The position numbers were made by a program, and so were the translations under genes. Shown one piece after another: positions 7,491 through 28,202 of a DNA stretch of 42,545 nucleotides (positions are counted from its first letter, which is position 1; every line of letters starts with the position of its first letter). The notes beneath the pieces were generated by a model, which worked only from the letters and a program-made list of their open reading frames with translations, did not search any database and was not told the DNA's origin. The stretch is from a virus, in the UHGV virus genome UHGV-0212520, one strand, 5' to 3'.

Positions 7491-7519
7491 TTGCACACCC
7501 CAACATAATAGGATACTAT
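7491..7519 (+). promoter_or_regulatory. sigma70-like promoter, family B copy 1 (TTGCAC-N17-TACTAT)
   Basis: TTGCAC 7491-7496, spacer accccaacataatagga, TACTAT 7514-7519; spacer and flank conserved with 8821-8849 and the minus-strand copies at 19594-19622 and 28174-28202. Confidence 0.5.
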
Positions 7520-7553
7520 TCGCTTATCGGAACGAGACAGAGGAGCGAGGGTT

Positions 7554-7742
7554 ATGTTTAAGAAGGGTCAGTTGGTCCGTAGTAAAAAGTCTGGATGTTT
7601 ATACTCCGTATTTTCCACCAACAACAGAGGCAGTGCCGCCATTTGTAAACTTCGCAATGTATTTACTGGCGGTCATGCAACTGTAAGCGCGGAATATTTA
7701 AAACTCATCGGCAACAATTTTAAATTCAAAGGGGAGAAGTGA
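7554..7742 (+). CDS. Hypothetical small basic protein
   Basis: 62 aa ORF, ATG with GAGGAG RBS; first gene after promoter B1. Confidence 0.5.
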   Translation: MFKKGQLVRSKKSGCLYSVFSTNNRGSAAICKLRNVFTGGHATVSAEYLKLIGNNFKFKGEK

Positions 7743-7945
7743 TGGAAGAATTATTCGAAGAGATGAAACATCATAGACTGGAGAAAGTGCATTTCCAGGT
7801 AAACAGATACGAGGTTGTTTTATTAGATGGCCCAACTATTTCTTCCGGGACATGTGAGCTATTGCTGAAAGTTTTACGTGCGCTCCGAACGGCATCGAAT
7901 CATGATGCTCGTGCCGAAGACTCTGAGGGAGGTTGCCGTAAATGA
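7739..7945 (+). CDS. Hypothetical protein
   Basis: 68 aa ORF, overlapping stop/start, RBS GGGGAG. Confidence 0.5.
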   Translation: MMEELFEEMKHHRLEKVHFQVNRYEVVLLDGPTISSGTCELLLKVLRALRTASNHDARAEDSEGGCRK

Positions 7946-8133
7946 GAATTCGTATAACTGACGTTGATTATGTTCCGCCGCCGGATTATGGCGACCCTTC
8001 GTTACGTGACTTCGGTATCTCAGTCGGAGATGAGTTCGAGGTCACATTCAGTAATGTTTATGGTCACCTAGTTGAACACCGTGGCGAGGAACTGTTAATA
8101 CGCGACCGTGAATGTGAAGTTCTGGAGGACTAA
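7942..8133 (+). CDS. Hypothetical protein
   Basis: 63 aa ORF, RBS GGGAGG. Confidence 0.5.
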   Translation: MRIRITDVDYVPPPDYGDPSLRDFGISVGDEFEVTFSNVYGHLVEHRGEELLIRDRECEVLED

Positions 8134-8136
8134 GTT

Positions 8137-8280
8137 ATGAGAGAAGCATTCGAACGGTGGGCCGTCGTTGAGGGTCTGCCGGTTAACAAGGGTTCGAAGA
8201 AAGAGTACCTGAACGTTAAGACGCGTCTCGCGTGGCGGGCGTGGAAAGCTGGTGTGCTATCTGTTGCGAATCCGAGGTGA
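8137..8280 (+). CDS. Small hypothetical protein (47 aa)
   Basis: ATG 8137 preceded by GGAGGA; fills the gap between neighbouring genes; not in track (<60 aa). Confidence 0.4.
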   Translation: MREAFERWAVVEGLPVNKGSKKEYLNVKTRLAWRAWKAGVLSVANPR

Positions 8281-8283
8281 TTT

Positions 8284-8481
8284 ATGGGTGAGTGGATTAG
8301 GTGTAGTGAGCGGATGCCAATGGCGTGCCGTGACGTAATAATAACCGACATGGATATGGTTTCCAGAGTGGCGTGGTTCAACGATAGAAATGATGCCTGG
8401 TATGTTACCGGGGTTGGGTGGTTTTCACGTGATGAGGTGACTCACTGGATGCCGTTGCCCGAGCCGCCATCGCTGGCGTAA
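8284..8481 (+). CDS. Hypothetical protein, possibly DUF551-like
   Basis: 65 aa; C-terminal THWMPLPEPP resembles the DUF551 phage domain (from memory, unverified); RBS GAGGTG. Confidence 0.4.
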   Translation: MGEWIRCSERMPMACRDVIITDMDMVSRVAWFNDRNDAWYVTGVGWFSRDEVTHWMPLPEPPSLA

Positions 8482-8482
8482 C

Positions 8483-8518
8483 AGGTGGTGTAATAGGTGG
8501 TGTAATAGGTGGTGTAAT
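8483..8518. repeat. Three perfect tandem copies of the 12-mer AGGTGGTGTAAT
   Basis: aggtggtgtaat repeated at 8483-8494, 8495-8506, 8507-8518, followed by a partial copy aggccaatagg. Confidence 0.85.
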
Positions 8519-8550
8519 AGGCCAATAGGTTACTATTTGGCTTTGTGTCT

Positions 8551-8585
8551 TACGCTGCTACACAGCAGCGTATCATTTTTCTCAT
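8551..8585 (+). terminator. Hairpin (acgctgc-tacaca-gcagcgt) followed by T-rich tract; possible terminator
   Basis: 7-bp stem at about 8552-8571 then atcatttttctcattttt. Confidence 0.35.
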
Positions 8586-8642
8586 TTTTGTTCTATTTCA
8601 TGAAATGCAACAATCGAAGCTACTATTGCGGGAGATGCAACA

Positions 8643-8813
8643 ATGAAACCGAATGACATCGTAACCTGGACCGGTAGAAACGGAGAAAAGCGATTCGGGC
8701 TTATTGTTGCGTCAGACGGCAACAAGTACCGTGTTATGCGATGGCGTCAGTGGGCGCGACGCCCGAGGTACTGCTGGATTAGCGGCGAACGATTATCGTT
8801 AAAACACCAATAA
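8643..8813 (+). CDS. Small hypothetical protein (56 aa)
   Basis: ATG 8643 with RBS GGGAGA; basic, Trp/Arg-rich. Confidence 0.4.
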   Translation: MKPNDIVTWTGRNGEKRFGLIVASDGNKYRVMRWRQWARRPRYCWISGERLSLKHQ

Positions 8814-8820
8814 AATTTAC

Positions 8821-8849
8821 TTGCACAGTAAGATAGAATAGGCTACTAT
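8821..8849 (+). promoter_or_regulatory. sigma70-like promoter, family B copy 2 (TTGCAC-N17-TACTAT)
   Basis: TTGCAC 8821-8826, spacer agtaagatagaataggc, TACTAT 8844-8849. Confidence 0.5.
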
Positions 8850-8879
8850 TCATTTACACAAACGAGAGGAGAGACAGAG

Positions 8880-9008
8880 ATGAAAGATTATAGCGAAGTA
8901 ACTTTAGGTGAGTTGCAGGACGAGTACGAAGATATGCTCTACCCGTTCGTCTGCGACGGAGACTACAACGGCGTCTATAACGGAGTGAGCGAAGAATATG
9001 AACACTAA
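8880..9008 (+). CDS. Small acidic hypothetical protein (42 aa)
   Basis: ATG 8880 with RBS GAGAGGAGAGA; overlaps the next gene start. Confidence 0.35.
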   Translation: MKDYSEVTLGELQDEYEDMLYPFVCDGDYNGVYNGVSEEYEH

Positions 9009-9387
9009 AAACGAAGTATTCGAGTACCTGATTGACCAACTACGGCAGCAGGTAAATAACAACCAGTGCGAAGACCTGGCGCATGAGGTGCAGTCACTTA
9101 AGAATCAGTTGCGTGATGCGTCGGCGCAGATTAAGGCGTTGCATCTGGCCTTGGCTACAGCTACCGGTGACGGGGAGGCGTACAAACGTATCCGTGAGCA
9201 TGAGCAATCCGGATGCCGTAAAGACGATACTCAGGAATGCCCCCATAACTGGCGATTCGTTAATGGTAAGGCTCCTGCCGTATGTATTAATTGCGGAGTG
9301 ACTAAATCCAGCGAGTGTGAACATGAATGGCAATTTTACGGAGTCGGGTTTCCATGTATGTGCCTTAAATGCGGGTTAAAGAAATGA
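8998..9387 (+). CDS. Coiled-coil protein with C-terminal Cys-rich zinc-ribbon-like domain
   Basis: 129 aa; C-terminal CPHNW...CINCG...CEHEW...CMCLKCG cysteine pairs. Confidence 0.5.
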   Translation: MNTKNEVFEYLIDQLRQQVNNNQCEDLAHEVQSLKNQLRDASAQIKALHLALATATGDGEAYKRIREHEQSGCRKDDTQECPHNWRFVNGKAPAVCINCGVTKSSECEHEWQFYGVGFPCMCLKCGLKK

Positions 9388-9587
9388 TCAGCATCCTCTT
9401 TATCTGGGTACTGTCCGCAGGCCAGATGAAACTCGCGGCATCAGAAACGTTTTATTCGATGGAGGCGTGCCAGTCTGCGGCGCGTGCCGCAGAGAACGCG
9501 CACTTCCTGTTTCAGGGCGACAAGCCCAACGATTCAGAGGTACGCGCTATCTGCTCACCTAAGAGACTTGGTAAACAGGAGAAATAA
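9384..9587 (+). CDS. Small protein with N-terminal hydrophobic signal-like segment
   Basis: Start chosen at ATG 9384 (ATGA overlap with upstream stop); MISILFIWVLSAGQMKLAAS hydrophobic N-terminus. Confidence 0.4.
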   Translation: MISILFIWVLSAGQMKLAASETFYSMEACQSAARAAENAHFLFQGDKPNDSEVRAICSPKRLGKQEK

Positions 9588-9589
9588 TT

Positions 9590-9862
9590 ATGGTACAGAG
9601 ATACGATTTAAAAGAAGACTGTGTTACGGGGCATATTGACTTAGAGAAAGACGCAGACGGTGACTGGGTGCGTTATGGAGACTACAAGGAACTGGACAAC
9701 AGTTTCCAGGACTACATAACAACTACGGACATGGAAATAGAAGGGCTTGTGGCAAGATTGGCAGAAGTAAACGCTGAGTTACAGAAATACAAAGACCAGT
9801 TCCCTGATTACGTCGAGTGCGCGAACTGTGGGTCAATTACACATGTGGAAGGGGTGGAGTGA
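9590..9862 (+). CDS. Hypothetical protein, paralog A (MVQRYDL...)
   Basis: 90 aa; RBS AGGAGA; N-terminus and WVRYGDYKELD segment similar to the next gene. Confidence 0.5.
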   Translation: MVQRYDLKEDCVTGHIDLEKDADGDWVRYGDYKELDNSFQDYITTTDMEIEGLVARLAEVNAELQKYKDQFPDYVECANCGSITHVEGVE

Positions 9863-10056
9863 TGGTGCAGAGATATGAATTAGAGCTTTATCATTGCAAT
9901 GGCGGAGAGATGGAGCCGTGTGATGAAGGTGGTTACGTAGAGTACGAAGATTACGCGGAGCTGGAGCGAAAACTGTGTAACTTCGCCGCCCAGGTACTGT
10001 ACTCACCTTGTTCGAAAGTTACCGAAGAAATGGCCTGCGAGATTCTCGGTATATGA
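9862..10056 (+). CDS. Hypothetical protein, paralog B (MVQRYEL...)
   Basis: 64 aa from ATG 9862; shares MVQRY(D/E)L start and G(D/G)(W/Y)V(R/E)Y(G/E)DY(K/A)EL(D/E) with the previous gene. Confidence 0.45.
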   Translation: MVQRYELELYHCNGGEMEPCDEGGYVEYEDYAELERKLCNFAAQVLYSPCSKVTEEMACEILGI

Positions 10057-10346
10057 GCCTTGCAACTGACATCCTGAAACGAAGCGGCCTTGCGCCGCTG
10101 TCACCGAGAGCGAACACCCAGATATACAAGCGCCGCCGTAACGCGCTGTACCCTGAGATTCAGGCCAGACGCAAAGCGGTCCGCGCCTGTGGATTCCAGA
10201 ACGGGAAGGCCGTGAATCTGGGTGAGTTCAAGACAAAGGAACGGGCTGCTATCGCTAATCGGTTATTTAATTACTGGAAATCGCTGGGATACGAAGATAT
10301 TCCGACGAAACCACAGAGACGACAATACATCTGGAGACATAAATGA
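10053..10346 (+). CDS. Hypothetical basic protein
   Basis: 97 aa from ATG 10053 overlapping upstream stop. Confidence 0.45.
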   Translation: MSLATDILKRSGLAPLSPRANTQIYKRRRNALYPEIQARRKAVRACGFQNGKAVNLGEFKTKERAAIANRLFNYWKSLGYEDIPTKPQRRQYIWRHK

Positions 10347-10783
10347 CTACTATCGCGTTTGACGGAAAGACAATGGCTTGTGACACCCGTGTTGTGTGCG
10401 GGAGTAACTGTTACAACACAGACACAAAGATATACGAGAATGATTTCGCTGTTATTGGGGTGGCTGGCGATGCAGGGGTAGGCACTATGCTTATCGATTG
10501 TCCGGGTATTCTTCGACCACAGCCCTACGACTTCGATTTCGAGGCCCTGGTGTTCGTGAAAGACACAGAAAAGGTGTATAAAGTCGCGTTTTATAAATCA
10601 TGGGATTGTGCACTTAGTTCGGTTATTCCAATTGCGGATAGCTTCGCCGCCGTGGGGTCTGGCTCGCCCTATGCGTTAGCCGCTATGGAATGTGGGTATT
10701 CGGCGCATGGTGGTGTAGCTGTTGCCTCGAAGTTCGACACTAACACCGGCGGCAAGATTATTACCAAACAACTATTAGGATAA
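10343..10783 (+). CDS. HslV/proteasome beta-subunit-like Ntn hydrolase (putative peptidase)
   Basis: 146 aa; MTTI N-terminus with Thr at position 2, VIGVAGDAG and AVGSGSPYALAAM segments align by eye with E. coli HslV (MTTIV..., VIAGFAGGTADA, IGSGGPYAQAAA). Confidence 0.5.
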   Translation: MTTIAFDGKTMACDTRVVCGSNCYNTDTKIYENDFAVIGVAGDAGVGTMLIDCPGILRPQPYDFDFEALVFVKDTEKVYKVAFYKSWDCALSSVIPIADSFAAVGSGSPYALAAMECGYSAHGGVAVASKFDTNTGGKIITKQLLG

Positions 10784-10842
10784 TTCCTACCCGTGGTATC
10801 CTCCAGTTACTGCATACTTAATACGCACCTGGAGGATTCATC

Positions 10843-11151
10843 TTGGATAAATTTACTGAAACAGTGACAGGGTGGCTTCTCGCCGCCGCACTAGCCGGAG
10901 GGGTCATCGGGCTACGACAACATAAGTCCGTTATTTCTGGCCCCATCGACGGGTTCTGCTTTATTGCAACTGGCTTCACCTGCGCCGTATTTGGCGCACC
11001 TCTCGCAGCTCAATGGTTCGGCATTACCGGCGAACGCGAAATAGCTGGCCTCGGATTTATCATCGCTGTTCTCTGGATGCCTATCTATTCCCGCCTCTCC
11101 GGTATCGTCGCCGGGGAATACATCTCACGTCGAGGAGGCCCGGATGAATGA
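10843..11151 (+). CDS. Putative holin (multi-TM small membrane protein)
   Basis: 102 aa with about three hydrophobic segments, immediately upstream of endolysin; start per ORF track (my base count around the start was off by one, so start uncertain). Confidence 0.45.
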   Translation: MDKFTETVTGWLLAAALAGGVIGLRQHKSVISGPIDGFCFIATGFTCAVFGAPLAAQWFGITGEREIAGLGFIIAVLWMPIYSRLSGIVAGEYISRRGGPDE

Positions 11152-11416
11152 GTTATTCTGGTTCGGCGGTATGCTGGCAATCGGGGGCACGTCGCTGTTT
11201 AACGTGTATCATCCCAGCGTGGACGACGGATTATTTGGCCGGGTGCTCTATATCCTCACCGCCATTGTCTGCGCTGCCGGGTGCATCCACCTGTTACAGG
11301 GCAGCATGTCACCTACGCTGCCTGAGACATTAATCACATTAGTTGCGCTGCGTCAGATTCGCCAGGCGTGGCTGTCATACGGAGGTAATAAGCGTGTCTC
11401 GAAACATTTCAGATAA
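11144..11416 (+). CDS. Putative second holin/antiholin-like membrane protein
   Basis: 90 aa with two hydrophobic segments; overlaps both the holin and endolysin genes. Confidence 0.4.
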   Translation: MNELFWFGGMLAIGGTSLFNVYHPSVDDGLFGRVLYILTAIVCAAGCIHLLQGSMSPTLPETLITLVALRQIRQAWLSYGGNKRVSKHFR

Positions 11417-11882
11417 TGGGTTGCATTTTACCGCTGCGTTCGAGGGATTCCGAGGAACTGCGTATCGTGCTACGCCGAATGAGAAGTACCTTACTATTGG
11501 CTACGGAAGCTACGGCCCACATGTTAAGGCAGGACAGACCATCACCCCCGGACAGGGCTTGCTGTTACTGAATCGCGATATGGCTAAGGCTGTAGCCGCG
11601 GTTGATGCAGCGGCACACCATTCATTAACACAGGCTCAGTTCGACGCTGTGTGCGACCTGGTGTATAACGCTGGTGCTGGTGTGATTGCTGCTACCACCG
11701 GCACGGGTAAGGCGCTGCGTTCGGGTGATACCGCGACGCTGCGGGCTAAGCTGGCGCTGTTCATCAACCAGAACGGCAAACCGCTACTTGGCCTGCGTCG
11801 CCGTACCGCGGGCCGCCTGGCACTGTTTGACGGTAAGCCGTGGCAAGAGGCTGAGGCTATCGGGCGCGCGGTGAAAGGTTGA
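11394..11882 (+). CDS. Endolysin, phage lysozyme (GH24-like muramidase)
   Basis: Pattern NGLHFTAAFEGFRGTAY...TIGYG...QFDAVCDLVYNAG...LLGLRRRTAGRLALF resembles P22-type lysozymes; start set to GTG 11394 (RBS GGAGG 8 nt upstream). Confidence 0.75.
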   Translation: MSRNISDNGLHFTAAFEGFRGTAYRATPNEKYLTIGYGSYGPHVKAGQTITPGQGLLLLNRDMAKAVAAVDAAAHHSLTQAQFDAVCDLVYNAGAGVIAATTGTGKALRSGDTATLRAKLALFINQNGKPLLGLRRRTAGRLALFDGKPWQEAEAIGRAVKG

Positions 11883-11946
11883 CACCTGAGACTAATCCGA
11901 CGATACTTAAATCACCTCCTGTTCCATCCCTCTGCTCTCCAGTTTT

Positions 11947-11980
11947 ATCCCGGCCCTGACCCAGCCGGGATTTTTTTTTA
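11947..11980 (+). terminator. Rho-independent terminator after the lysis cassette
   Basis: atcccggc-(9-nt loop)-gccgggat stem followed by nine T residues. Confidence 0.75.
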
Positions 11981-12001
11981 TCTATTTTCTGCAATGACTA
12001 G

Positions 12002-12030
12002 TTGACTATTACCTTAGACCCTATTATATT
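12002..12030 (+). promoter_or_regulatory. sigma70-like promoter (TTGACT-N17-TATATT)
   Basis: TTGACT 12002-12007, 17-nt spacer, TATATT 12025-12030; precedes the gene at 12065. Confidence 0.45.
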
Positions 12031-12064
12031 TACTCCATCGACAACGAGAACGGAGTAGAGAGAA

Positions 12065-12262
12065 ATGAGTAACGTACAAACAATCGCGATAACAGAGGAA
12101 CTTGAAGTCAAATGTATCGCATCTGTTATGGGCGGTGATTCGGTGGAAAAACTACAGATAAGGGGGGCTGCTGGTTACATACGCAGGGCTAATAGTGCGA
12201 TGAATGATTCCTTACGTAAACGTTACCTCATGAAAGCGTTAGAAATTCTGGAGAATAAGTAA
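12065..12262 (+). CDS. Hypothetical protein
   Basis: 65 aa, RBS GGAGTAGAGAGA. Confidence 0.45.
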   Translation: MSNVQTIAITEELEVKCIASVMGGDSVEKLQIRGAAGYIRRANSAMNDSLRKRYLMKALEILENK

Positions 12263-12411
12263 TGAAAATCACAGATATTGAGGCATTCAAAGACGCACAA
12301 CTGATGGCACGTATCGCCGTTAGTAACCTTAGCAACAGCATCCCGGCAGACGCGTTCTGGTTCGCTGCGATGCAGACACTTAAAGCAGCATATGCAGGAG
12401 AGAAGAAATGA
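12262..12411 (+). CDS. Small hypothetical protein (49 aa)
   Basis: ATG overlapping upstream stop (TAATG); fills an otherwise empty 150-nt interval. Confidence 0.35.
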   Translation: MKITDIEAFKDAQLMARIAVSNLSNSIPADAFWFAAMQTLKAAYAGEKK

Positions 12412-12605
12412 AAGTTAAAGCAGCTAAAATTCTCTGGTTACCCGCCCTTGACTATGTGACAGAGGGTAAAGTGTATGACGTATACAACCCGAAAACTACT
12501 GGTTTTGGTTATATAGTTGCCGATGACGGCTGTGATATTTACATAGACTTTGGTAGCGATGAAGGTGATGGTTTCCACGGCGTTAAATGGGAGATTGTCG
12601 AATGA
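12408..12605 (+). CDS. Hypothetical protein
   Basis: 65 aa, RBS GGAGAGAAG. Confidence 0.45.
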   Translation: MKVKAAKILWLPALDYVTEGKVYDVYNPKTTGFGYIVADDGCDIYIDFGSDEGDGFHGVKWEIVE

Positions 12606-12760
12606 GCGAACAAACACCAATCAGCCAACCGTTACGAGTAGGCCGTAAAGTCAGTCACATCCCGTTCCCGACACGTGAAGAACTGATGAAACGTAACAGT
12701 TTCCCGGGGCCGGACAAGAACAAGTATCTCAATCGCATGTGGGGAGAGCGTAAAGAATGA
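12602..12760 (+). CDS. Small hypothetical protein (52 aa)
   Basis: ATG 12602 overlapping upstream stop; verified open frame to 12760. Confidence 0.35.
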   Translation: MSEQTPISQPLRVGRKVSHIPFPTREELMKRNSFPGPDKNKYLNRMWGERKE

Positions 12761-12942
12761 CTGACCGCGAATATGAAAAGATGATGGTTGAGGCCGTTAA
12801 CAGCGGCGTAGACATCGGACACGTGATGCGCGTCCTGAATACTAAAATCGCGGTAGCCGAGCAAATGGTCGAGTCGCTTTACGAGACGCGCCGTGAACTG
12901 ATTAACCGCTTCAACCTGAACAAAGGTGACACCAATGCCTAA
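12757..12942 (+). CDS. Hypothetical protein
   Basis: 61 aa, overlapping start/stop. Confidence 0.45.
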   Translation: MTDREYEKMMVEAVNSGVDIGHVMRVLNTKIAVAEQMVESLYETRRELINRFNLNKGDTNA

Positions 12943-13222
12943 AATCACAATCGCATCTCTCGAGCGCCGTATTCTGGTGCTTGAGTCGGAGAAACAGACG
13001 TTAGGCGGGCAACTGTCGATTAACGGTGAGTTTCAGCTGGAGGCGTTCCGTATACTCCTCGGCGTTATGAAGCAGGAACCCAGCGCATACGCAGGAGTGT
13101 TCCTTGACGAGGAAGGTTCGCAGACACTAAGTTACTACGCTACCGAAGAAGAATTAGCGTTCGACGGCCCCGCGGTATCTATCCCGCTGTTCGATAACTG
13201 GATGGTGTACGACTATGACTAA
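12935..13222 (+). CDS. Hypothetical protein
   Basis: Start placed at ATG 12935 (MPKITIASLE...). Confidence 0.45.
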   Translation: MPKITIASLERRILVLESEKQTLGGQLSINGEFQLEAFRILLGVMKQEPSAYAGVFLDEEGSQTLSYYATEEELAFDGPAVSIPLFDNWMVYDYD

Positions 13223-13400
13223 AGCGCCTGAACCAGTAGTTATCGATGGCGTCCTGTGGAAGCCATACTCGGTTTACCACATCGACGCCGACGGGAAGAA
13301 GTTTAGCTTCTACATTTTTGCAATTAGCCGTGAGCACGCCGCTTGTGTGGTTGACGATATTCGAGAAACGGCGTGGCTTGGTGATGAGATAGCGGGGTGA
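13215..13400 (+). CDS. Hypothetical protein
   Basis: 61 aa ORF. Confidence 0.45.
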   Translation: MTKAPEPVVIDGVLWKPYSVYHIDADGKKFSFYIFAISREHAACVVDDIRETAWLGDEIAG

Positions 13401-13404
13401 GAGT

Positions 13405-13488
13405 ATGAGTCTCGAGGTGGTTATCGGTCTGGTGGGTCTTAGTTACTTCATTGGGCTGTTGGTTGGGTTTCTGTGGGGTAAATACTAA
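13405..13488 (+). CDS. Possible 27-aa single-TM micropeptide
   Basis: ATG 13405; MSLEVVIGLVGLSYFIGLLVGFLWGKY; low confidence because of size. Confidence 0.25.
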   Translation: MSLEVVIGLVGLSYFIGLLVGFLWGKY

Positions 13489-13658
13489 TGTTCAGTGACA
13501 TTAACGCGGCAATCGAAGAAGCAATCTGGCGTCGCTACAACGGCGAGCAACAACGGCATTTCTGCCTGGTGCAACGCGGTAACATGATTGCCGTAGTGCA
13601 GGACCGCGATAACAAATATCCGAATGCGATGTGGACAACGAGGAATTTTTTAGGATGA
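13488..13658 (+). CDS. Small hypothetical protein (56 aa)
   Basis: ATG 13488 (TAATG overlap); frame verified codon by codon to TGA 13656-13658. Confidence 0.35.
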   Translation: MFSDINAAIEEAIWRRYNGEQQRHFCLVQRGNMIAVVQDRDNKYPNAMWTTRNFLG

Positions 13659-13891
13659 TTACCAGCATTCCGAACCTGATTAAAGAATTCGGCACGATGG
13701 CCGAGACATGCCGGCAAACCGGCATCAACGAAATGACGATTGCGAAGTACAGCAAAGACGTTGATTGCGAGCGCCACGTAATTTATAACAATCGTCTGAT
13801 GACACATGTTAAGACAAGCCCGGTGTTATTCACGCGCCGAGGTATCACTAAAACTGAGCAACGCATTGCTAAAGGGGAGAGTGGGGAATGA
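13655..13891 (+). CDS. Hypothetical protein, possible HTH-like segment
   Basis: 78 aa from ATG 13655; AETCRQTGINEMTIAKYSK is HTH-like. Confidence 0.4.
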   Translation: MITSIPNLIKEFGTMAETCRQTGINEMTIAKYSKDVDCERHVIYNNRLMTHVKTSPVLFTRRGITKTEQRIAKGESGE

Positions 13892-14070
13892 TTGAGATTT
13901 TGAGGGCTACGAATGTTGCTGGTGACCTGGTGTTTTGGCTGGCCTTTCTCGGTGTGCTGATAAAACAACCGACTCTGTTTAACAGTCTCCCTCGTTACCT
14001 GTGGTGGCCTATGTTTTTAGGCATGGGTGTATCAGGCGTGGCAGGCATCCTTTTGTGGTTTTTCAAATGA
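13888..14070 (+). CDS. Small membrane protein (two hydrophobic segments)
   Basis: 60 aa; LVFWLAFLGVLI and MFLGMGVSGVAGILLWFF. Confidence 0.45.
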   Translation: MIEILRATNVAGDLVFWLAFLGVLIKQPTLFNSLPRYLWWPMFLGMGVSGVAGILLWFFK

Positions 14071-14169
14071 GACTACTAATCATCCCTAACGCCTGGGCCA
14101 TTCCCGTAGCCAACGACCATTACGGCGGCGACGGTAAAAGAGCGCAACGACACGGCCTATACAACTGAT

Positions 14170-14197
14170 ACAAGCCCTCTACGGAGGGCTTTTCTGT
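14170..14197 (+). terminator. Intrinsic terminator before the packaging module
   Basis: agccctc-tacg-gagggct followed by tttctgt. Confidence 0.55.
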
Positions 14198-14230
14198 ACA
14201 TCCCGCCCAATCCCCTTATATAATCTATTT

Positions 14231-14249
14231 AGACGCGTAGGGCGCGTCT
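14231..14249. promoter_or_regulatory. Palindrome AGACGCG-N5-CGCGTCT upstream of the small terminase gene
   Basis: agacgcgtagggcgcgtct at 14231-14249, with another AGACGC copy at about 14266; just downstream of a TATAAT-like hexamer at about 14219-14224. Confidence 0.4.
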
Positions 14250-14289
14250 GGTGCGCTCTGATGGTCAGACGCATATGCAAGGGGATTCT

Positions 14290-14835
14290 ATGAAGCTGAA
14301 ACTTAAGCAGCCATCGCCAGAGGTGGTGCAAGCTGCACATGAAGAAGCTGTTAGCGCAAACCGTCGCCGTAAACAACCGCGCGGTAAACAGAGCCTTTAT
14401 CAATCATCCCGTAATTCCGCTGCGCTGTGGGACCCGGACTATTGCGACGCGTTAATCGAGTTCTTCGACCGCACGTCGTGGGAACTTGTTCCTACGTCCA
14501 AAGGTGACGAACGCCCGTTGATTCAGGATAAACCGCCGTCGCTGGCCCGCTTCGCATTACACATCGGCGTCACTATTCCGATTATTAAGCTGTGGTTGCG
14601 TGAGATTCCCGCATTTGCAGAAGCCTGGGAGACCGCACAGGCGCTGGAAGAGGCGTACTTCACGGAGACAGGCGCGGCGGGCATCTCCGCTACGTTTGCT
14701 GCCGCGAAGTTGGGCCTCAGCAAAGAGAAACCGGTTGAATCAACCGAAGAAACGGCGCCGACTGAGATTATTTTCAGTGTCGCAGAGCCTGTAGGTAAAA
14801 TCGTAACAACGAATATGGGCGAGGTAGAGGAATGA
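14290..14835 (+). CDS. Putative terminase small subunit
   Basis: 181 aa from ATG 14290 (RBS AAGGGGA); position immediately upstream of and overlapping the large terminase; no diagnostic motif verified. Confidence 0.45.
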   Translation: MKLKLKQPSPEVVQAAHEEAVSANRRRKQPRGKQSLYQSSRNSAALWDPDYCDALIEFFDRTSWELVPTSKGDERPLIQDKPPSLARFALHIGVTIPIIKLWLREIPAFAEAWETAQALEEAYFTETGAAGISATFAAAKLGLSKEKPVESTEETAPTEIIFSVAEPVGKIVTTNMGEVEE

Positions 14836-16082
14836 GTATTCAGCTATCCGCACCACAGGCACTGTTCCTGAATTGCGATAACAAATACAAAGCCTATGTG
14901 GGCGGCTTCGGCAGCGGCAAGACGTTTGTTGGCTGTCTCGACCTGCTTACGTTTATGCTCAAGCACCCCGGTACACGCCTCGGCTACTTCGGCCCAACGT
15001 ACCCTGCTATACGTGACATCTTCTACCCGACATTCGAGGAAGCGGCTAATCTCCTCGGTCTCGATGTGCTGGTCAAATCCGGCGACAAAGAAGTCGTGGT
15101 TACTCGCGGTAAGACGGTGTTAGGAACTGTTATCTGCCGCTCGATGGATAATCCAGGCTCGATAGTCGGCTTCAAAATCGCGGCTGCGGTCGTGGATGAG
15201 CTGGACGTATTAAGCCGTGAGAAAGCTGAGCTGGCGTGGAACAAAATCGTAGCCCGTATGCGTCTGGTTATACCAGGTGTAATTAACCACATCTCCGTCA
15301 CCACGACGCCGGAAGGGTTCAAGTTCGTCTACGCCAAGTTCAAAGAGAATCCGACACCGAGTTACTCAATGGTGCAGGCCTCCACGCACGAGAATGCGCG
15401 ATTCCTGCCGCCGGATTACATTAGCTCACTGACCGAGACTTACCCCGCGCAACTGATTAACGCGTATCTGAACGGGGAGTTCGTTAACCTGACCTCCGGC
15501 AGCGTGTATTACGCCTATGAGCGCCGTAAGCACCGCAGTAAAGAGACAATTCAACCTGGCGACACGCTGTACATCGGGCAGGACTTCAACGTTACGAAGA
15601 ACGCAAGCGCCGTGTATGTGCAACGTAAAGATGGCTGGCACGCTGTAGCAGAACTGAAAGGCCTGTTCGATACACCGGACACCGTGCGTGTGATTACTGA
15701 GAAGTGGAAGTCACAAGGTCACCGCATCGTCGTTTACCCCGACGCCAGCGGCAAGAACCGCAAAACCAACTCGGCGTCAATCTCTGATATTGCGTTACTC
15801 CAGCAGGCCGGGTTCGATGTTCGCGCTAAATCCGTCAACCCCCCGGTTAAAGACCGTGTTTTAGCGGTGAATACCGCGCTGGAAAAAGGTAAGCTGTGGG
15901 TTAACGACCACTTATGCCCCGAGATAGCCAAGACGCTGGAGCAGCAGGCTTACGACGATAACGGGGAGCCATCCAAAGACGGCATCATTGATCATATGGC
16001 GGATGCTCTCGGCTATCCTGTAGTTTATGAGATGCCGGTGGTTAAACCAGTAATCAACATCCCGGTGACTTTCGCACTTTAA
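14832..16082 (+). CDS. terL: Terminase large subunit
   Basis: 416 aa; Walker A-like YVGGFGSGKTFVG near N-terminus; followed by portal. Confidence 0.85.
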   Translation: MSIQLSAPQALFLNCDNKYKAYVGGFGSGKTFVGCLDLLTFMLKHPGTRLGYFGPTYPAIRDIFYPTFEEAANLLGLDVLVKSGDKEVVVTRGKTVLGTVICRSMDNPGSIVGFKIAAAVVDELDVLSREKAELAWNKIVARMRLVIPGVINHISVTTTPEGFKFVYAKFKENPTPSYSMVQASTHENARFLPPDYISSLTETYPAQLINAYLNGEFVNLTSGSVYYAYERRKHRSKETIQPGDTLYIGQDFNVTKNASAVYVQRKDGWHAVAELKGLFDTPDTVRVITEKWKSQGHRIVVYPDASGKNRKTNSASISDIALLQQAGFDVRAKSVNPPVKDRVLAVNTALEKGKLWVNDHLCPEIAKTLEQQAYDDNGEPSKDGIIDHMADALGYPVVYEMPVVKPVINIPVTFAL

Positions 16083-16094
16083 GAGGATTATTCA

Positions 16095-17564
16095 ATGTTA
16101 ACTATGAACGGTCAGAATCAGGGTGTTAAGACAAAACACCGGGAATGGCTGCATCACTTCGATAAATGGCAGAAGGTGCGACACGCGCTGGAAGGCGACC
16201 TTATCCGTTACCTGCGCAACGTCGGTAAGAACGAACCAGACCAAACCCACGCAGCACAGCGGCAGGAAGAATACGAGAACGGCGCTATCTGCTACAACTT
16301 CGCTAAACGTACCCTGGCGGGGATGGTGGGATCGGTGATGCGCAAAGACCCTGAGCAGATTATTCCGCCTGAACTGGAGTACCTGTTACGCAACGCGGAC
16401 GGTTCCGGTGTCGGGCTGTGGCAGCACGCCCAGGATACGCTGATGGAGATTGACTCGGTGGGTCGCGGTGGGTTGCTGGTTGACGCCCCGGAGACAGCCG
16501 CGGCAACGGCAGCAGAACAGAACGCCGGTTTATTAAACCCGGTCATCGCGTTCTACACCGCGGAGAACATCATCAACTGGCGACTGACCCGCATAGGTTC
16601 CGTTAACCGAGTGACAATGGTTGTGTTGCGCGAAGTATGGGAGTACTCGGAACCGGGCGCAGAGTTTGAAACCAAGTTCGGCGAGCAATACCGCGTCCTT
16701 GACCTGATTGACGGCCGTTATCGCCAGCGCATTTACCGCTTCGATGCCGAAGGTGGTGCTCAGGATGAAGTAATCGAAATATTCCCGGAACTCGGTGAAC
16801 AGTTGCGCGGCAAAATCCCGTTCACGTTCATCGGGGCAAGCAACAACGACGCAACCATCGACGACGCACCTTTGCTGCCGTTGGCTGAGCTTAATATCGG
16901 ACATTTCCGTAACAGCGCGGACAATGAGGAGTCCAGTTTCGTTGTGGGCCAGCCCACTCTATTCATCGCCCCAGGTGGGAACATGAGCATGGAACAGTGG
17001 AAAGAGGCCAACCCTCACGGTGTCCGCATGGGTTCACGCTCGGGCCACAACATTGGCGAAGGTGGCAATGCGTTTCTGGTCCAGGCCGGAGAGAACAACC
17101 TCGCCAAACAGAACATGCTGGATAAAGAGAATCAGGCCATCCAGATTGGGGCGCAGCTTATCACCCCGACGCAGCAAATCACTGCGGAATCAGCCCGTCT
17201 GCAACGCGGTGCTGATACGTCAGTTATGGCGACAATCGCGCGTAACGTAAGCATGGCGTATACCGATGCGTTGCGCTGGGTGGCTGCGATGCTAGGGTTA
17301 CGTGAAGGTACAGAGGTTGAGTTCAAACTGAATATGGAGTTCTTCCTGCAACCTATGACCGCTCAGGACCGCGCCCAGTGGATGGCCGATATTAACGCGG
17401 GACTGTTACCTGCTACTGCTTACTATGCTGCGTTGCGCAAGGCGGGTGTAACTGACTGGACCGATGAGGACATACAGAGCGCTATCGAAGACGCACCGTT
17501 GCCGTTAGGTGCTGTAGCGCAGGTATCTGGAGCGATTCCTCAGTCGGCGCAACAACAGGAGTAA
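16095..17564 (+). CDS. Portal protein
   Basis: 489 aa directly downstream of terL and upstream of head morphogenesis gene. Confidence 0.75.
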   Translation: MLTMNGQNQGVKTKHREWLHHFDKWQKVRHALEGDLIRYLRNVGKNEPDQTHAAQRQEEYENGAICYNFAKRTLAGMVGSVMRKDPEQIIPPELEYLLRNADGSGVGLWQHAQDTLMEIDSVGRGGLLVDAPETAAATAAEQNAGLLNPVIAFYTAENIINWRLTRIGSVNRVTMVVLREVWEYSEPGAEFETKFGEQYRVLDLIDGRYRQRIYRFDAEGGAQDEVIEIFPELGEQLRGKIPFTFIGASNNDATIDDAPLLPLAELNIGHFRNSADNEESSFVVGQPTLFIAPGGNMSMEQWKEANPHGVRMGSRSGHNIGEGGNAFLVQAGENNLAKQNMLDKENQAIQIGAQLITPTQQITAESARLQRGADTSVMATIARNVSMAYTDALRWVAAMLGLREGTEVEFKLNMEFFLQPMTAQDRAQWMADINAGLLPATAYYAALRKAGVTDWTDEDIQSAIEDAPLPLGAVAQVSGAIPQSAQQQE

Positions 17565-19389: not shown

Positions 19390-19390
19390 T

Positions 19391-19418
19391 AAAAGGCCCC
19401 AAATGGGGCCTTAGTTTT
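19391..19418. terminator. Bidirectional intrinsic terminator (AAGGCCCC-N4-GGGGCCTT family)
   Basis: aaaaggccccaaatggggccttagtttt. Confidence 0.65.
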
Positions 19419-19542
19419 ATGTTAAGCTGAGTCTTTCTGCCCACTCAAGCATCACCTTTTTAATGCGTGAGTCGGGGGCGTCTCTCCACGCTTTACGGAT
19501 AACCGCAGCTCGACATTTATTTTTAAGAGGTGCGTAGTTCAT
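19417..19542 (-). CDS. Small hypothetical protein (41 aa) driven by promoter B3
   Basis: ATG 19542 on minus strand, translation MNYAPLKNKCRAAVIRKAWRDAPDSRIKKVMLEWAERLSLT; ends at the terminator; weak RBS. Confidence 0.3.
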   Translation of the reverse strand: MNYAPLKNKCRAAVIRKAWRDAPDSRIKKVMLEWAERLSLT

Positions 19543-19593
19543 TTTAAATATTCCCGATTTGATGGATTAAACATGTTGTGTGTGTTGAAATGA

Positions 19594-19622
19594 ATAGTAC
19601 CCTATTGTATTGGTGTCTGCAA
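19594..19622 (-). promoter_or_regulatory. sigma70-like promoter, family B copy 3 (TTGCAG-N17-TACTAT on minus strand)
   Basis: Reverse complement: TTGCAG acaccaatacaataggg TACTAT tcattt; near-identical to 28174-28202. Confidence 0.5.
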
Positions 19623-19674
19623 ACTATTTATTTACCTATTCCAGTTATTCCACCGAATTGTAAATGTTAGAATA

Positions 19675-19690
19675 AACTATTCGAATAGTT
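19675..19690. promoter_or_regulatory. Perfect 16-bp palindrome AACTATTCGAATAGTT overlapping the -35 of the 19689 promoter
   Basis: aactattcgaatagtt reads identically on both strands; contains the ACTATTC motif found at the family B -10 regions. Confidence 0.5.
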
Positions 19691-19717
19691 GACTTTTCAC
19701 TAAAAATGTGCTAAGCT
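19689..19717 (+). promoter_or_regulatory. sigma70-like promoter with extended -10 (TTGACT-N17-TGcTAAGCT)
   Basis: TTGACT 19689-19694, 17-nt spacer ending in TGc, TAAGCT 19712-19717. Confidence 0.4.
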
Positions 19718-19724
19718 CCACCTG

Positions 19725-19895
19725 AGCTTGTGAAGTATGAACAAGCGACCGCGGCGCGGGCAGGTAACGGAGCGGGACGTAAGTCCTGAGTGTAGTTACG
19801 CTGACGCGTTCGGAAGGGCCATACTCTATTGCTTGTGTAAAAAGTAACAGGTTTACTGAGATTACGCCGTTTCTATGTTTAAATGATAAGGCCTA
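19725..19895 (+). ncRNA. Candidate small RNA or structured leader between promoter 19689 and terminator 19896
   Basis: About 170-200 nt transcribed interval with no ORF that has an RBS (only a 36-codon ATG ORF at 19737-19847 without SD); GC-rich internal inverted repeats (gcttgt/acaagc, ccgcg/cgcgg). Confidence 0.25.
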
Positions 19896-19922
19896 GCGCC
19901 CCGCTTTAAGGCGGGGCTTTAC
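19896..19922 (+). terminator. Intrinsic terminator-like hairpin upstream of the spanin genes
   Basis: gccccgc-tttaag-gcggggc followed by tttactt. Confidence 0.5.
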
Positions 19923-19942
19923 TTATCGAGAAAGGGGGAAAC

Positions 19943-20332
19943 ATGAATCTTAAAGCAACTGTCGTAGCGGGAGCGTGTTTCATCATCCTGGCCCACGCAC
20001 ACGGCGTCTACCAGTACCGCATCGGCTGGAACGAAGGCCGGGCGAATCTCGTTTCGCAGCAACAGCAGAAAGCACAGGCTGAGTTCGCGAAGAAAACACA
20101 ACGGCAGCAGCAGGATGAATCAAAGGCCGCAGCCGCTGACAACGAAGGTAAGACGAAATCAGAGGTGATTACCCGTGAAGTCGTTAAGTACATTAAAACG
20201 CCTGGTCGCAGCGTGTGCACTTTTGACCCTGAGCGCGTGCAGCTCAAGTCCCGCGCCGTCGTCAACGCCAATTCCATCCCCGGATACGATGATGATGCAG
20301 CCGCCGTGCAAACTGGCAGCGCCAAGCAGTGA
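19943..20332 (+). CDS. Rz: i-spanin (Rz-like)
   Basis: 129 aa; N-terminal TM segment, Q/E-rich coiled-coil middle, RBS AGGGGGA; lipoprotein gene in +1 frame within its 3' half. Confidence 0.65.
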   Translation: MNLKATVVAGACFIILAHAHGVYQYRIGWNEGRANLVSQQQQKAQAEFAKKTQRQQQDESKAAAADNEGKTKSEVITREVVKYIKTPGRSVCTFDPERVQLKSRAVVNANSIPGYDDDAAAVQTGSAKQ

Positions 20333-20438: not shown

Positions 20439-20520
20439 TTGCCTTGCATGTTGGAATAATTTATTCTTGACATGTAAATCCGGGTGGCCCGGGTTCCAAC
20501 GTCCAGGGGACATACTGACT

Positions 20521-26362: not shown

Positions 26363-26363
26363 A

Positions 26364-26392
26364 ACTAAGGCCCCTTTCGGGGCCTTTTTCTT
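26364..26392. terminator. Bidirectional intrinsic terminator (AAGGCCCC-N4-GGGGCCTT family)
   Basis: ctaaggcccctttcggggcctttttc; T-tracts on both strands. Confidence 0.7.
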
Positions 26393-26549
26393 ATTCCTTC
26401 AATTGCATAGGGTAGAAGTTAACGACTTCTCCTTTATCCCGAAGCCGTGAATATTCATCTAACGCATCTTCCTGGCTACTTACGGCATAGATATCATTCC
26501 ACTCGTCCCACTCTTTGTCGTATACGCGGATTACATATATTGTTTTCAT
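26391..26549 (-). CDS. Small hypothetical protein, last gene of minus-strand moron operon
   Basis: Probable start at ATG 26549 (MKTIYVIRVYDKEWDEW...), 52 aa; the track ORF extends to 26606 but would overlap the upstream gene. Confidence 0.35.
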   Translation of the reverse strand: MKTIYVIRVYDKEWDEWNDIYAVSSQEDALDEYSRLRDKGEVVNFYPMQLKE

Positions 26550-26556
26550 TACGGTC

Positions 26557-26787
26557 TCACTCATCAATGTTACTTCGATACTCCCGTAACTTCTCCAGAC
26601 TTTCAATCGCTTCCGCTAAGTCTGTTCCGGTGTCCTTGTGTCCGCGCAAGCCCATGCACAATAACTTCTTCAATGCGTGCTGTAACGCCGGGTCGCGGAT
26701 GTCGAAGGCGCGGAGCACATCATAAACGTCTACTGTCATAGTGCTGCCGTGGATGTTCGTCATTGTGCGGTTGTATTTTGAAGTCAT
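26557..26787 (-). CDS. Hypothetical protein in moron operon
   Basis: 76 aa; ATG overlaps stop of upstream phosphoesterase gene (ATGA). Confidence 0.5.
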   Translation of the reverse strand: MTSKYNRTMTNIHGSTMTVDVYDVLRAFDIRDPALQHALKKLLCMGLRGHKDTGTDLAEAIESLEKLREYRSNIDE

Positions 26788-27914
26788 CCCAGCATCTCCG
26801 GTGAAATAGTTAAACGTGCGACTTCGCCATATTCGGCGCTATAAGTAATTACATTTGCGCTACGGCCAGACATCCACCCACCGCGGGAAGCATATGCATC
26901 TTTCGCCGCGAGAGTGCGATGTTGTTCCACTACCATATTCCTACTTTCTACAATCTTTTGATGGTGGAGATGCCCGACATGTGCGTAACTGTACTCGCTT
27001 TCGCCAAATGCTTTTCTGAACTTAGCTATCATAATGGGTTCGACCACCTCAAACCGGCATTTATGCCCGTGCGTAAAGAACAGCGTCGTTTTGCCGTGCT
27101 GGACCATCTTGTAAACATCCGGCGACGTATCGACGAACACACGCGGCTCATTGTCATACAGCGTACTGAACATCTCAGCCAACCAAATCATGCCACTCTC
27201 GTCGTGATTTCCTTGCACGATAAGCAAGCGAACATTTTTGTGTTTAACCAGCGCCATATCAACAACACGGCGGACCATACGAATCATGTAGCGGACCAGT
27301 TTCTGATAGCGTGTGTCTGCGTCCAACACATGGCGCGACTCAGGGGTAACGGCATCCAGACTATCGAAGTGCGCGAAGTCACCTAACAGGTTAATAACTC
27401 CTGTCCCTGCATCCGGTGCTTTCTGAAACGCTGCATCGAACCAGCGAGAGAACAGGTCTTCCGCGATTTTCATATCCCAGTCGTCGCCGCTCTCGTCGGC
27501 CCAGGCCAGCATGCCAAGATGAAAATCAGATACCGTGTAAAGATTGAGTAGTTTATCATCGCGTTTAGCGCGGGCAGCTTTAACAGGCGCAACTGGCGTA
27601 ATCTCCGACTTCATGCCCTCGATTACGGCTTTCATCAACTCGACCTGACGTTCGGCGTCGGTGTCAGTCTTAACCCATTGCAGTTTAGTATTGCCAAACT
27701 CGTCCACCAGCGACGATGTACCTTTAATCTTGTAGCCGTCTGGTACAAGGTGGCTGACGTCACGTCCGTGGCCTACGCCTTTCTTAGCCAGCTTCGCTTT
27801 ACGGATGCGAATAACGCGGTCTGAGATGCCGTATTTACGGGCGATGTCGATATTCTTCACACCGGCGTTCAATTCTTCCTGCAACTGTTCGTCGGTTATT
27901 TTCTTCCGGGCCAT
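26784..27914 (-). CDS. N-terminal HTH domain fused to calcineurin-like metallophosphoesterase (SbcD/Mre11-like motif set)
   Basis: 376 aa; N-terminal ITDEQLQEELNAGVKNIDIARKYGISDRVIRIRKAKL (HTH); then SDFHLG (DxH), LLGDFAHFD (GDxxD-like), VQGNHDE (GNHD/E), FTHGHK, HVGHLHH (GHxH); RBS GAGGAA. Confidence 0.6.
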   Translation of the reverse strand: MARKKITDEQLQEELNAGVKNIDIARKYGISDRVIRIRKAKLAKKGVGHGRDVSHLVPDGYKIKGTSSLVDEFGNTKLQWVKTDTDAERQVELMKAVIEGMKSEITPVAPVKAARAKRDDKLLNLYTVSDFHLGMLAWADESGDDWDMKIAEDLFSRWFDAAFQKAPDAGTGVINLLGDFAHFDSLDAVTPESRHVLDADTRYQKLVRYMIRMVRRVVDMALVKHKNVRLLIVQGNHDESGMIWLAEMFSTLYDNEPRVFVDTSPDVYKMVQHGKTTLFFTHGHKCRFEVVEPIMIAKFRKAFGESEYSYAHVGHLHHQKIVESRNMVVEQHRTLAAKDAYASRGGWMSGRSANVITYSAEYGEVARLTISPEMLG

Positions 27915-27951
27915 GCTTATTCCTCGTGCTTAGGATTTGTCCTATACTAGC

Positions 27952-28143
27952 TCACTTCTCTTTAACATTCGAGTTGCAAGCCCAGATTAAAATAAATAAC
28001 CACGGCAACAGAACCCAGCCAAGAAACAGATTAGCCATGAATATCGCTAATTTCGCTTTATGGTTGCGGAAGTACGCAACCAGGAAAGGTGTGAAATAGG
28101 CGAGAAGTGCAAACAGAATTAAGGAAACCGGTAAACTGGACAT
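27952..28143 (-). CDS. Superinfection immunity protein (T4 Imm-like small membrane protein)
   Basis: YFTPFLVAYFRNHKAKLAIFMANLFLGWVLLPWLFILIWA matches the Imm_superinfect pattern (YFLPSI..F.R.H.N..AIF.LNL.LGWT..GW..ALIWA) from memory; start set to ATG 28143 (RBS AAGGGG); first gene after promoter B4. Confidence 0.6.
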   Translation of the reverse strand: MSSLPVSLILFALLAYFTPFLVAYFRNHKAKLAIFMANLFLGWVLLPWLFILIWACNSNVKEK

Positions 28144-28173
28144 TTTAAACCCCTTCATTGTTGGTGTAAGTGA

Positions 28174-28202
28174 ATAGTACCCTATTATATTGGGGTGCGC
28201 AA
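28174..28202 (-). promoter_or_regulatory. sigma70-like promoter, family B copy 4 (TTGCGC-N17-TACTAT on minus strand)
   Basis: Reverse complement: TTGCGC accccaatataataggg TACTAT tcactt; drives the imm/phosphoesterase operon. Confidence 0.55.

Follow-up and report, generated by a model that had tools for sequence, protein, structure and literature searches.

The 42,545-nucleotide (nt) stretch of viral DNA UHGV-0212520, the whole of which is referred to here as the window, carries a 14-base-pair (bp) inverted repeat, AATAG-N4-CTATT, within or across the core elements of promoters on both strands. This repeat is probably an operator, present in at least eight to nine promoters and most likely bound by a dimeric helix-turn-helix (HTH) protein of the phage, with a Cro-like protein of 71 amino acids (aa) as the best candidate, which would shut the attached units off together. 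Eight exact copies were found in the window against 0.02 expected (starting at 699, 3860, 7507, 8524, 8837, 19593, 28173 and 39836), and it was by far the most over-represented inverted repeat of 5+5 geometry genome-wide (runner-up, three copies). Seven of the eight exact copies lie between, or overlap, -35-like and -10-like hexamers that face a gene, and three further copies with one mismatch (3905, 11997 and 19684) all overlap a spacer, a -10 or a -35.

Two promoter classes sharing one inverted repeat

Four sites, two on each strand, had been proposed in an initial annotation as a second family of promoters of the form TTGCRS-N17-TACTAT, and all four were found exactly and on the proposed strands (sites 1-4, Table 1). 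A search with no mismatches returned these four matches and none in any of 100 dinucleotide-preserving shuffles (mean, 0.00; maximum, 0), so that enrichment against a shuffled-genome background, put forward as a check on the family, was significant. The sequence AATAGGNTACTATTC was exact at the same four places, and with up to two mismatches it gave eight matches (0.24 expected). A 37-nt weight matrix, built from relatives in IMG/VR and scored on the window and on 10 shuffles, gave 43-62 bits for the four sites, 2.8 bits for the next position in the window and 8.6 bits for the best shuffle, and the window therefore holds exactly four full members. The same layout of hexamers and 17-bp spacer was present at 59 distinct related IMG/VR sites.

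Each of the four sites shows the features expected of a sigma-70 promoter, with hexamers 17 bp apart (16-18 bp expected), the A2 and T6 bases of the -10, and a short leader facing a gene. Start codons follow on the same strand 20-35 nt past the -10 (7554; 8880; 19542, minus; 28143 or 28158, minus), preceded at sites 1, 2 and 4 by a Shine-Dalgarno sequence of the GAGG/AGGGG type before an ATG and at site 3 by a weaker ribosome-binding site. On these features, all four are predicted to be promoters recognised by the sigma-70 RNA polymerase of the host, and transcription would start ~7 nt past the -10, in TCAyTTA. Sites 1 and 2 head small-gene operons on the plus strand, as had been suggested: an open reading frame (ORF) at 7554-7742 and four more small ORFs, ending at 8481, follow site 1, and a 42-aa ORF at 8880-9008, then 8998-9387 and later genes, follow site 2. 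An alternative -10, TAnAAT, located 7 nt upstream of TACTAT (TATAAT at site 4), had no consistent -35 at sites 1-3, and TTGCNC-N17-TACTAT was retained because it holds at all four sites and in the Jerseyvirus. The opposite orientation, as listed for phage fBC-Eco01, was also rejected for sites 1-3, which lack a gene and a usable -35 on that side, but may apply at site 4. Directly upstream of the -35 of site 1, at 7481-7488, there is an extra half-site, AACTATTC, which is kept in most Kagunavirus relatives and reads ACTAATC in a few.

The conserved core of the four sites, AATAGGnTACTATTC, is a -10 hexamer overlapping the inverted repeat, and AATAGGnTACTATT holds the dyad itself, AATAG, four free bases and CTATT. 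The same repeat occupies the spacer of three promoters of a TTGACA/TTGACG class, which are the strongest consensus promoters in the window (10-11 of 12) and all lie on the minus strand at the head of replication and recombination operons. The promoter at 694-722 heads 639-13 and also the DNA polymerase operon, which it reaches past the arbitrary end of the window, and the promoter at 39831-39859 heads 39798 to ~37558, including the SNF2 helicase. The repeat starts 10 nt past the -35 at sites 1-4 and 4-5 nt past it at 699, 3860 and 39836. Since the same repeat stands in TTGACA-N17/18-TATAGT promoters, the TTGC sites are not an independent second family; both classes share one element, and the TTGC class is no separate regulatory class. 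The hexamers, spacing and orientation originally described hold up, but the independence of the family does not, and the co-regulation suggested for the four sites, which is plausible, would involve a larger set of at least eight to nine promoters sharing the repeat.

The copy at 8524 is an orphan among the exact repeats (Table 1). A 12-bp tandem repeat, TGGTGTAATAGG, present four times at 8474-8521, reiterates the half-site AATAGG and runs into it, and the whole array (8474-8537) is possibly a decoy, a cooperative binding array or an origin-like iteron cluster; K1G and BUCT825, two related phages, have no exact repeat at the corresponding place. Two other explanations of the repeat were rejected. 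An RNA-level element was not supported, with zero Rfam hits, no tRNAs and the repeat lying also upstream of the predicted start, and none of the host transcription-factor sites considered (ArgR, OxyR, CRP, FNR, MarA, sigma-54 and sigma-S) has a 5-N4-5 geometry.

Table 1. Promoters, repeat copies and candidate regulatory genes in the window; promoters and operator function are predicted.
Feature	Position	Strand	Description
Site 1 promoter	7491-7519	+	-35 TTGCAC 7491-7496, 17-nt spacer, -10 TACTAT 7514-7519; 55.5 bits
Site 1 inverted repeat	7507-7520		AATAGGATACTATT
Site 2 promoter	8821-8849	+	-35 TTGCAC 8821-8826, -10 TACTAT 8844-8849, repeat 8837-8850; 43.0 bits
Site 3 promoter	19594-19622	-	-35 TTGCAG 19622-19617, -10 TACTAT 19599-19594, repeat 19593-19606; 51.1 bits
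Site 4 promoter	28174-28202	-	-35 TTGCGC 28202-28197, -10 TACTAT 28179-28174, repeat 28173-28186; 61.7 bits
Intact-arm form of the 14-bp repeat			AATAGGGTACTATT
Promoter TTGACA-N17-TATAGT	694-722	-	Repeat 699-712 in spacer
Promoter TTGACA-N18-TATAGT	3855-3884	-	Repeat 3860-3873 in spacer; heads recombination/exonuclease operon, 3823 to 952
Promoter TTGACG-N17-TATAGT	39831-39859	-	Repeat 39836-39849 in spacer
Degenerate copy AATATGGTACTATT	3905-3918	+	One arm mismatch; overlaps TGG-TACTAT extended -10 (3912-3917) of the Cro-like gene
One-mismatch copies	11997 and 19684		Each overlaps a -35 TTGACT hexamer
Orphan exact repeat	8524-8537	+	No usable -35; followed by terminator 8551-8572
71-aa HTH_3 protein	3949-4164	+	Pfam HTH_3, 1.2e-12; best PDB match 434 Cro
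56-aa HTH_17 protein (excisionase/MerR-like)	6737-6907	-	Alternative candidate binder
16-bp palindrome AACTATTCGAATAGTT	19675-19690		Overlaps GGAATAAACTATTC (19669-19682) and near-repeat AATAGTTGACTTTT (19684-19697)

Conservation of the repeat among related phages

The window is an essentially complete, arbitrarily opened genome with the gene order of K1G and SETP3. A megablast search of positions 7000-20000 against phage records matched siphophages of Escherichia, Shigella and Salmonella from the subfamily Guernseyvirinae, with the best matches ~88-91% identical (e.g., phages BUCT825 and EF2-1); BUCT825 is classified as Kagunavirus, and the window phage is a Kagunavirus. Replication and recombination genes occupy the minus strand (13-6907 and 37558-42498), and the early small genes, lysis genes, nin-like genes and structural genes occupy the plus strand, with two short minus-strand units embedded in the structural module.

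Exact dyads were present in K1G (n = 6), BUCT825 (n = 6, in 35 kilobases [kb]), SETP3 of the Jerseyvirus (n = 5) and a Jersey-like Proteus phage (n = 4), all at promoters, and no exact copy was found in the Cornellvirus FSL SP-031, Serratia phage Eta or a lambdoid Klebsiella phage. In a sample of classified IMG/VR loci that was not selected on the motif, consisting of up to 20 kb around the gene for a 56-aa HTH_17 protein (26 Kagunavirus and 10 Jerseyvirus), two to seven exact dyads occurred per locus in 36 of 36 loci. Because Kagunavirus intergenic regions are >90% conserved, footprinting within the genus is weakly informative, and the comparison across genera is decisive; conserved genes of the Kagunavirus and Jerseyvirus are ~72% identical. 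Corresponding promoters of the two genera retain the arms but differ in the -35, in the linker, in the centre of the dyad and even in the -10. No variation in the arms was seen over 57 distinct Kagunavirus and 18 distinct Jerseyvirus contexts, and the centre varied freely (TTAG, TTCG, CGAA, TATC, GCTA and others), in agreement with alignments of orthologous sites. Position is flexible as well: in SETP3 the counterpart of site 4 reads TTGCAT-N7-dyad with a -10 of TATTAT, so that the repeat lies 7 nt past the -35, a shift of 3 bp against the hexamers, and elsewhere the repeat overlaps the -35 itself. Two promoters annotated in the SETP3 record (15243-15271 and 32242-32267) coincide with the repeat, and the counterpart of site 4 agrees in position with an annotated promoter. 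Such constancy of the arms, combined with a free centre and a flexible position, argues for the operator of a dimeric DNA-binding protein and is unlike the contacts of RNA polymerase.

The same comparison bears on whether these could be plain constitutive sigma-70 promoters, spread as a copied cassette, with the dyad a by-product of AT-rich -10-like sequence. A 37-nt cassette with sharp ends does precede unrelated cargo at several genome positions in relatives, and each arm overlaps a -10-like hexamer (left, TAnAAT; right, TACTAT), but the same arms recur at differing distances from the -35 and in the otherwise dissimilar TTGACA and TTGCNC classes, and they do not change where the central 4 nt and the linker to the -35 do. 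In addition, the exact copy at 8524 has no usable -35 and sits beside a terminator, the AATAG arm covers -19 to -15, a sequence that sigma-70 does not need, and the Cornellvirus counterpart of the divergent promoter beside its Cro-like gene, TTGCAC-N18-TATAGT as read from the sequence, carries no repeat. Plain promoters are therefore regarded as an improbable explanation.

An activating role, in which the repeat is the site of an activator or of a polymerase-redirecting phage protein that switches promoters on, as in a middle-promoter model, is more doubtful still. The same repeat sits in near-consensus promoters (10-11 of 12), which need no activator, even though sites 1-4, as only moderate matches to consensus (TTGCNC, 3/6; TACTAT, 4/6), could benefit from help. 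Repressors usually bind between or over the hexamers, and the normal place of an activator is beside the -35 or further upstream; the repeat lies between or over the hexamers, unlike the placement of an activator. Spacers are already at the optimal 17 bp, so remodelling of the spacer in the manner of MerR is not needed.

Motifs corresponding to this repeat have been published twice from PHIRE searches. Seven 'conserved promoter sequences' are listed for VB_EcoS-Golestan (Table S4, PMC7203180), including TAATAGGGTACTATTCATTA and an element matching the degenerate copy at 3905, and seven 'Phage RNAP promoters' are listed for fBC-Eco01 and attributed to a phage RNA polymerase (RNAP; Table S2, PMC9825357), with a consensus, tgAATAGTa-ccTATTat-T, that is the reverse complement of the motif. 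Both lists hold the same motif at corresponding positions, seven per genome (e.g., TAATAGGGTACTATTCATTA and TGAATAGTACCCTATTATAT); the two papers give only 20-mers, with no -35/-10 assignment, dyad or operator reading, link to a regulator or comparison across genera. A phage-encoded RNA polymerase as the reader of these promoters is hardly credible. No RNA polymerase was detected in a Pfam scan of nine large ORFs of the window and none is annotated in the relatives, and hexamers of the sigma-70 type stand at canonical spacing at each site. The scanned ORFs encode a tailspike, a tape measure, a family A DNA polymerase, a helicase-primase, an SNF2 helicase, a portal, a DUF2800 nuclease and a phosphatase, and an 851-aa tail protein gave no Pfam match. 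As no RNA polymerase is encoded, the published label of phage RNAP promoter cannot be right.

Candidate binding proteins and the proposed circuit

The 71-aa HTH_3 protein is favoured, with somewhat better than even confidence, as the protein that would bind the repeat. Its alignment with 434 Cro, also of 71 aa, has an E value of 4.9e-07, spans residues 6-68 of 71 and retains Gln28 of the recognition helix; as a dimer, 434 Cro occupies operators of 14 bp. The gene is the sole plus-strand gene of the replication block, has a terminator at its end (4153-4173) and lies between divergent promoters that bear the copies at 3860 and 3905, which form the densest pair of sites. In the Kagunavirus its recognition helix, VSQGAINQLALG, is invariant even at 77% overall identity. 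Helix types also match operator states, three against three, with G/T flanks in the Kagunavirus, always TAATAG...CTATTA in the Jerseyvirus and no dyad in the Cornellvirus. A dyad with a free centre, overlap with core promoter elements and an adjacent HTH_3 gene were all found, a layout of the operator type. The corresponding gene of K1G (33428-33643; 98.6% identical) is unannotated in its RefSeq record.

In the proposed circuit, the transcription starts, protein binding, identity of the binder and direction of regulation are read from this layout. Early in infection the host sigma-70 polymerase would start at the repeat-bearing promoters, and the Cro-like protein would be made from its own extended -10 promoter. 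As it accumulates, the protein would occupy the dyads over the spacer and -10, where, because the repeat covers one or both of these elements, a bound protein would block RNA polymerase. Early small-gene operons, replication and recombination operons and accessory units would be turned down jointly, and the weaker, mismatched copies (at the promoter of the Cro-like gene and the two overlapping a -35) would respond later or less strongly. The weakened copy on its own promoter would give the Cro-like gene a milder self-repression.

Several observations weigh against this reading or against its choice of binder. The covariation between helix and operator covers only three lineages and is confounded with phylogeny. 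Cro-like proteins of the Kagunavirus and Jerseyvirus are 51% identical and differ at four positions of the recognition helix, yet the arms are the same, and in the Cornellvirus a Cro-like protein (41% identical) persists without any repeat; inspection beside that gene revealed no clear Cornellvirus-specific operator. The CTATT arm is always part of a -10-like hexamer (TACTAT, TATTAT, CTAT|TATAGT), and as it doubles as part of the -10, some of its conservation may stem from promoter function alone. At site 4, a possible plus-strand promoter (TTGGTG-N16-TATTAT, or TGATAGAAT at 28209-28217) overlaps the minus-strand one and the SETP3 counterpart is symmetric (TTGACG-N7-dyad-N7-ATGCAA), so that transcription may run both ways from this site and may reach the tail operon. 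The literature that was searched, in one case with a poorly targeted search, held no experimental transcription or binding data for the Guernseyvirinae. Finally, across 443 phage records and 41 IMG/VR loci, all on contigs of Kaguna/Jersey genome size, the 56-aa HTH_17 protein was confined to the Kagunavirus and Jerseyvirus, which is exactly the repeat-bearing set.

The last point is the basis for a variant that keeps the operator model and takes the HTH_17 protein or another clade-specific protein as the binder, a possibility that is considered unlikely. The repeat-free Cornellvirus and Eta do not have the HTH_17 protein, and between the window phage and Jersey-type phages it is 86-88% identical (K1G, 71%), which fits identical arms better than the 51% of the Cro-like protein. 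Its own operon promoter, TTGATT-N17-TATACT (7107-7079), however, has no repeat within ~400 bp, and the protein would leave the difference in flanking bases between the Kagunavirus and Jerseyvirus unexplained. By Pfam it is of the excisionase type, with no informative solved relative; small proteins of this type usually bind as monomers to direct or irregular repeats and rarely to 14-bp dyads. A search for distant homologues of the Cro-like protein returned only relatives at least 77% identical, all with the same recognition helix, and with only near homologues for either candidate there is no natural experiment that separates the two. An unlisted ORF of ~50 aa (6894-7046, minus) with a good ribosome-binding site overlaps the HTH_17 gene by ATGA; it follows the dyad-free promoter at 7107-7079 and would open the helicase-primase operon.

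With the Cro-like protein as the binder, the predicted circuit resembles Cro control in 434, P22 and lambda in its small HTH_3 protein of the Cro type, in a 14-bp dyad with conserved outer arms and a free centre that overlaps the -10 or -35 of early promoters, and in a regulator gene placed between divergent promoters with a weaker site on its own. The operator of 434 is ACAA-N6-TTGT, and the arms predicted here differ from it. Unlike those phages, no CI repressor or integrase was seen in the window and there is no three-operator OR/OL arrangement; instead, single operators would lie over at least eight promoters genome-wide, including accessory promoters, in a phage regarded as virulent. Many single dispersed operators under one repressor are known from C1 of the temperate phage P1, whose operators are asymmetric 17-mers. 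The predicted arrangement here shares with P1 one repressor and many single operators scattered over the genome, but C1 is unrelated in sequence. A wider proposal is tentative: in the Kagunavirus and Jerseyvirus, which are treated as strictly virulent, a retained 434-Cro-like repressor might govern at least 10 single operators genome-wide, set at differing positions in their promoters, with the operator cassette and a conserved terminator forming a portable socket that wires acquired genes into the timing programme of the phage.

Accessory units and neighbouring elements

Sites 3 and 4 had been described as driving minus-strand morons inside the structural module, and each was found with its own promoter and terminator and with cargo that is swapped among relatives. 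Site 3 drives only a 41-aa ORF (19542-19417), followed by a terminator (19412-19393); the ORF is shared with one record only, and K1G and BUCT825 are without the site 3 promoter. In relatives the same slot, bracketed by promoter and terminator, holds a sliding-clamp gene, a RusA-like resolvase gene or hypothetical genes. The unit of site 4 consists of a superinfection-immunity gene (28158/28143-27952; Pfam, 2.1e-12), a metallophosphatase (27914-26784) and a 76-aa ORF, with a terminator at 26386-26367. Its promoter and upstream context precede at least four different gene starts in IMG/VR contigs, and a fifth insertion context exists. As the same promoter cassette stands before different cargo in relatives, the term moron fits. 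Accessory genes bracketed by their own promoter and terminator within late operons are known from lambdoid morons and from the PeSL cassettes of T4-like phages, and here too the bracket is conserved and the cargo varies; unlike in those systems, the accessory promoters carry the phage's own predicted operator, so that acquired genes would join the phage programme.

Three near-identical bidirectional terminators of the form AAGGCCCC-N4/5-GGGGCCTT (17570-17590, 19393-19412 and 26367-26386) end structural sub-operons and minus-strand accessory units, and together with the promoter cassette they could be recombination sockets for the swapping of accessory genes. Serratia phage Eta has the structural module in common with these phages but carries another replication and regulatory module, and it contains no AATAG-N4-CTATT. 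Its record annotates another, 17-bp repeat, AAACAAATAAGTTGCAA (33328-33391, 10010-10026 and 11145-11161), beside the promoters of the corresponding minus-strand accessory unit, which suggests that each regulatory module brings its own operator to the accessory slot.

A 16-bp palindrome at 19675-19690 had been tied to the promoter family through the heptamer ACTATTC. The palindrome exists, but its link to the family is probably coincidental, as the 16-mer is confined to the Kagunavirus; the Jerseyvirus and Cornellvirus read TATTCAAAAAGT in its place. Across the three genera the conserved element at this location is GGAATA-N3-TATTC (19669-19682), with a second copy at 20453-20466 and further GGAATA/TATTCC repeats nearby, and the Cornellvirus has these elements though it is without the AATAG-N4-CTATT dyad. 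In the window phage the 16-mer arises because this element abuts the near-dyad AATAGTTGACTTTT, which in turn covers the -35 TTGACT (19689-19694) of a plus-strand promoter with the extended -10 TGC-TAAGCT (19709-19717; -10 TAAGCT, 19712-19717). A matching 'host promoter', HP1, is listed for fBC-Eco01 (PMC9825357).

Blocks that combine GGAATA/TATTCC with GGAATA-N3-TATTC lie upstream of an Rz-like gene and of the scaffold gene (19627-19643/19669-19682 and 20422-20438/20453-20466). Neither block varies among the Kagunavirus, Jerseyvirus and Cornellvirus, neither is present in Serratia phage Eta, and they may be a binding array for a regulator of late genes. Among small DNA-binding candidates, a NinH-like protein (13631-13891) alone is conserved at 61-69% identity throughout the three genera, each of which also has the Cro-like protein, at only 41-51% identity. 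A GC hairpin, CCGGGTGGCCCGG (20480-20492), invariant across the three genera, lies between an element GGAATAATTTATTC-TTGACA and the scaffold start at 20522. No -10-like hexamer follows GGAATAATTTATTC-TTGACA, which is therefore not a standard promoter, and the annotated TTG start of the K1G scaffold gene is really part of TTGACA beside the conserved palindrome.

Two units were also observed that consist of a promoter, an untranslated leader and a terminator, neither with an Rfam hit. In the first, TTGACT-N17-TAAGCT (19689-19717) precedes ~200 nt and a strong terminator (19898-19917) directly before the gene at 19943, and in the second, TTGACA-N17-TAAGGT (7123-7151) precedes ~265 nt and a terminator (7397-7418) just upstream of site 1. 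The first (19689-19925) resembles the PR'/6S RNA/tR' layout of lambda, a likeness that hints at antitermination control of late genes.

The circuit proposed for the window phage is of an ordinary kind, sigma-70 promoters with an operator of the Cro type, and its motif is already in print; as a standard repressor-operator circuit in concept, it is a local rather than a general advance. Members of the Kagunavirus and Jerseyvirus are widely isolated for therapy and food safety, and for these phages the analysis provides a testable map of promoters, their shared operator and its probable controller. It corrects the published labelling of the motif as a phage RNA polymerase promoter and would account for the presence, in an apparently virulent genome, of a Cro/CI-like gene of the sort sometimes taken as a sign of lysogeny. 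The predicted promoters and operators would also supply defined parts for the engineering of such phages.

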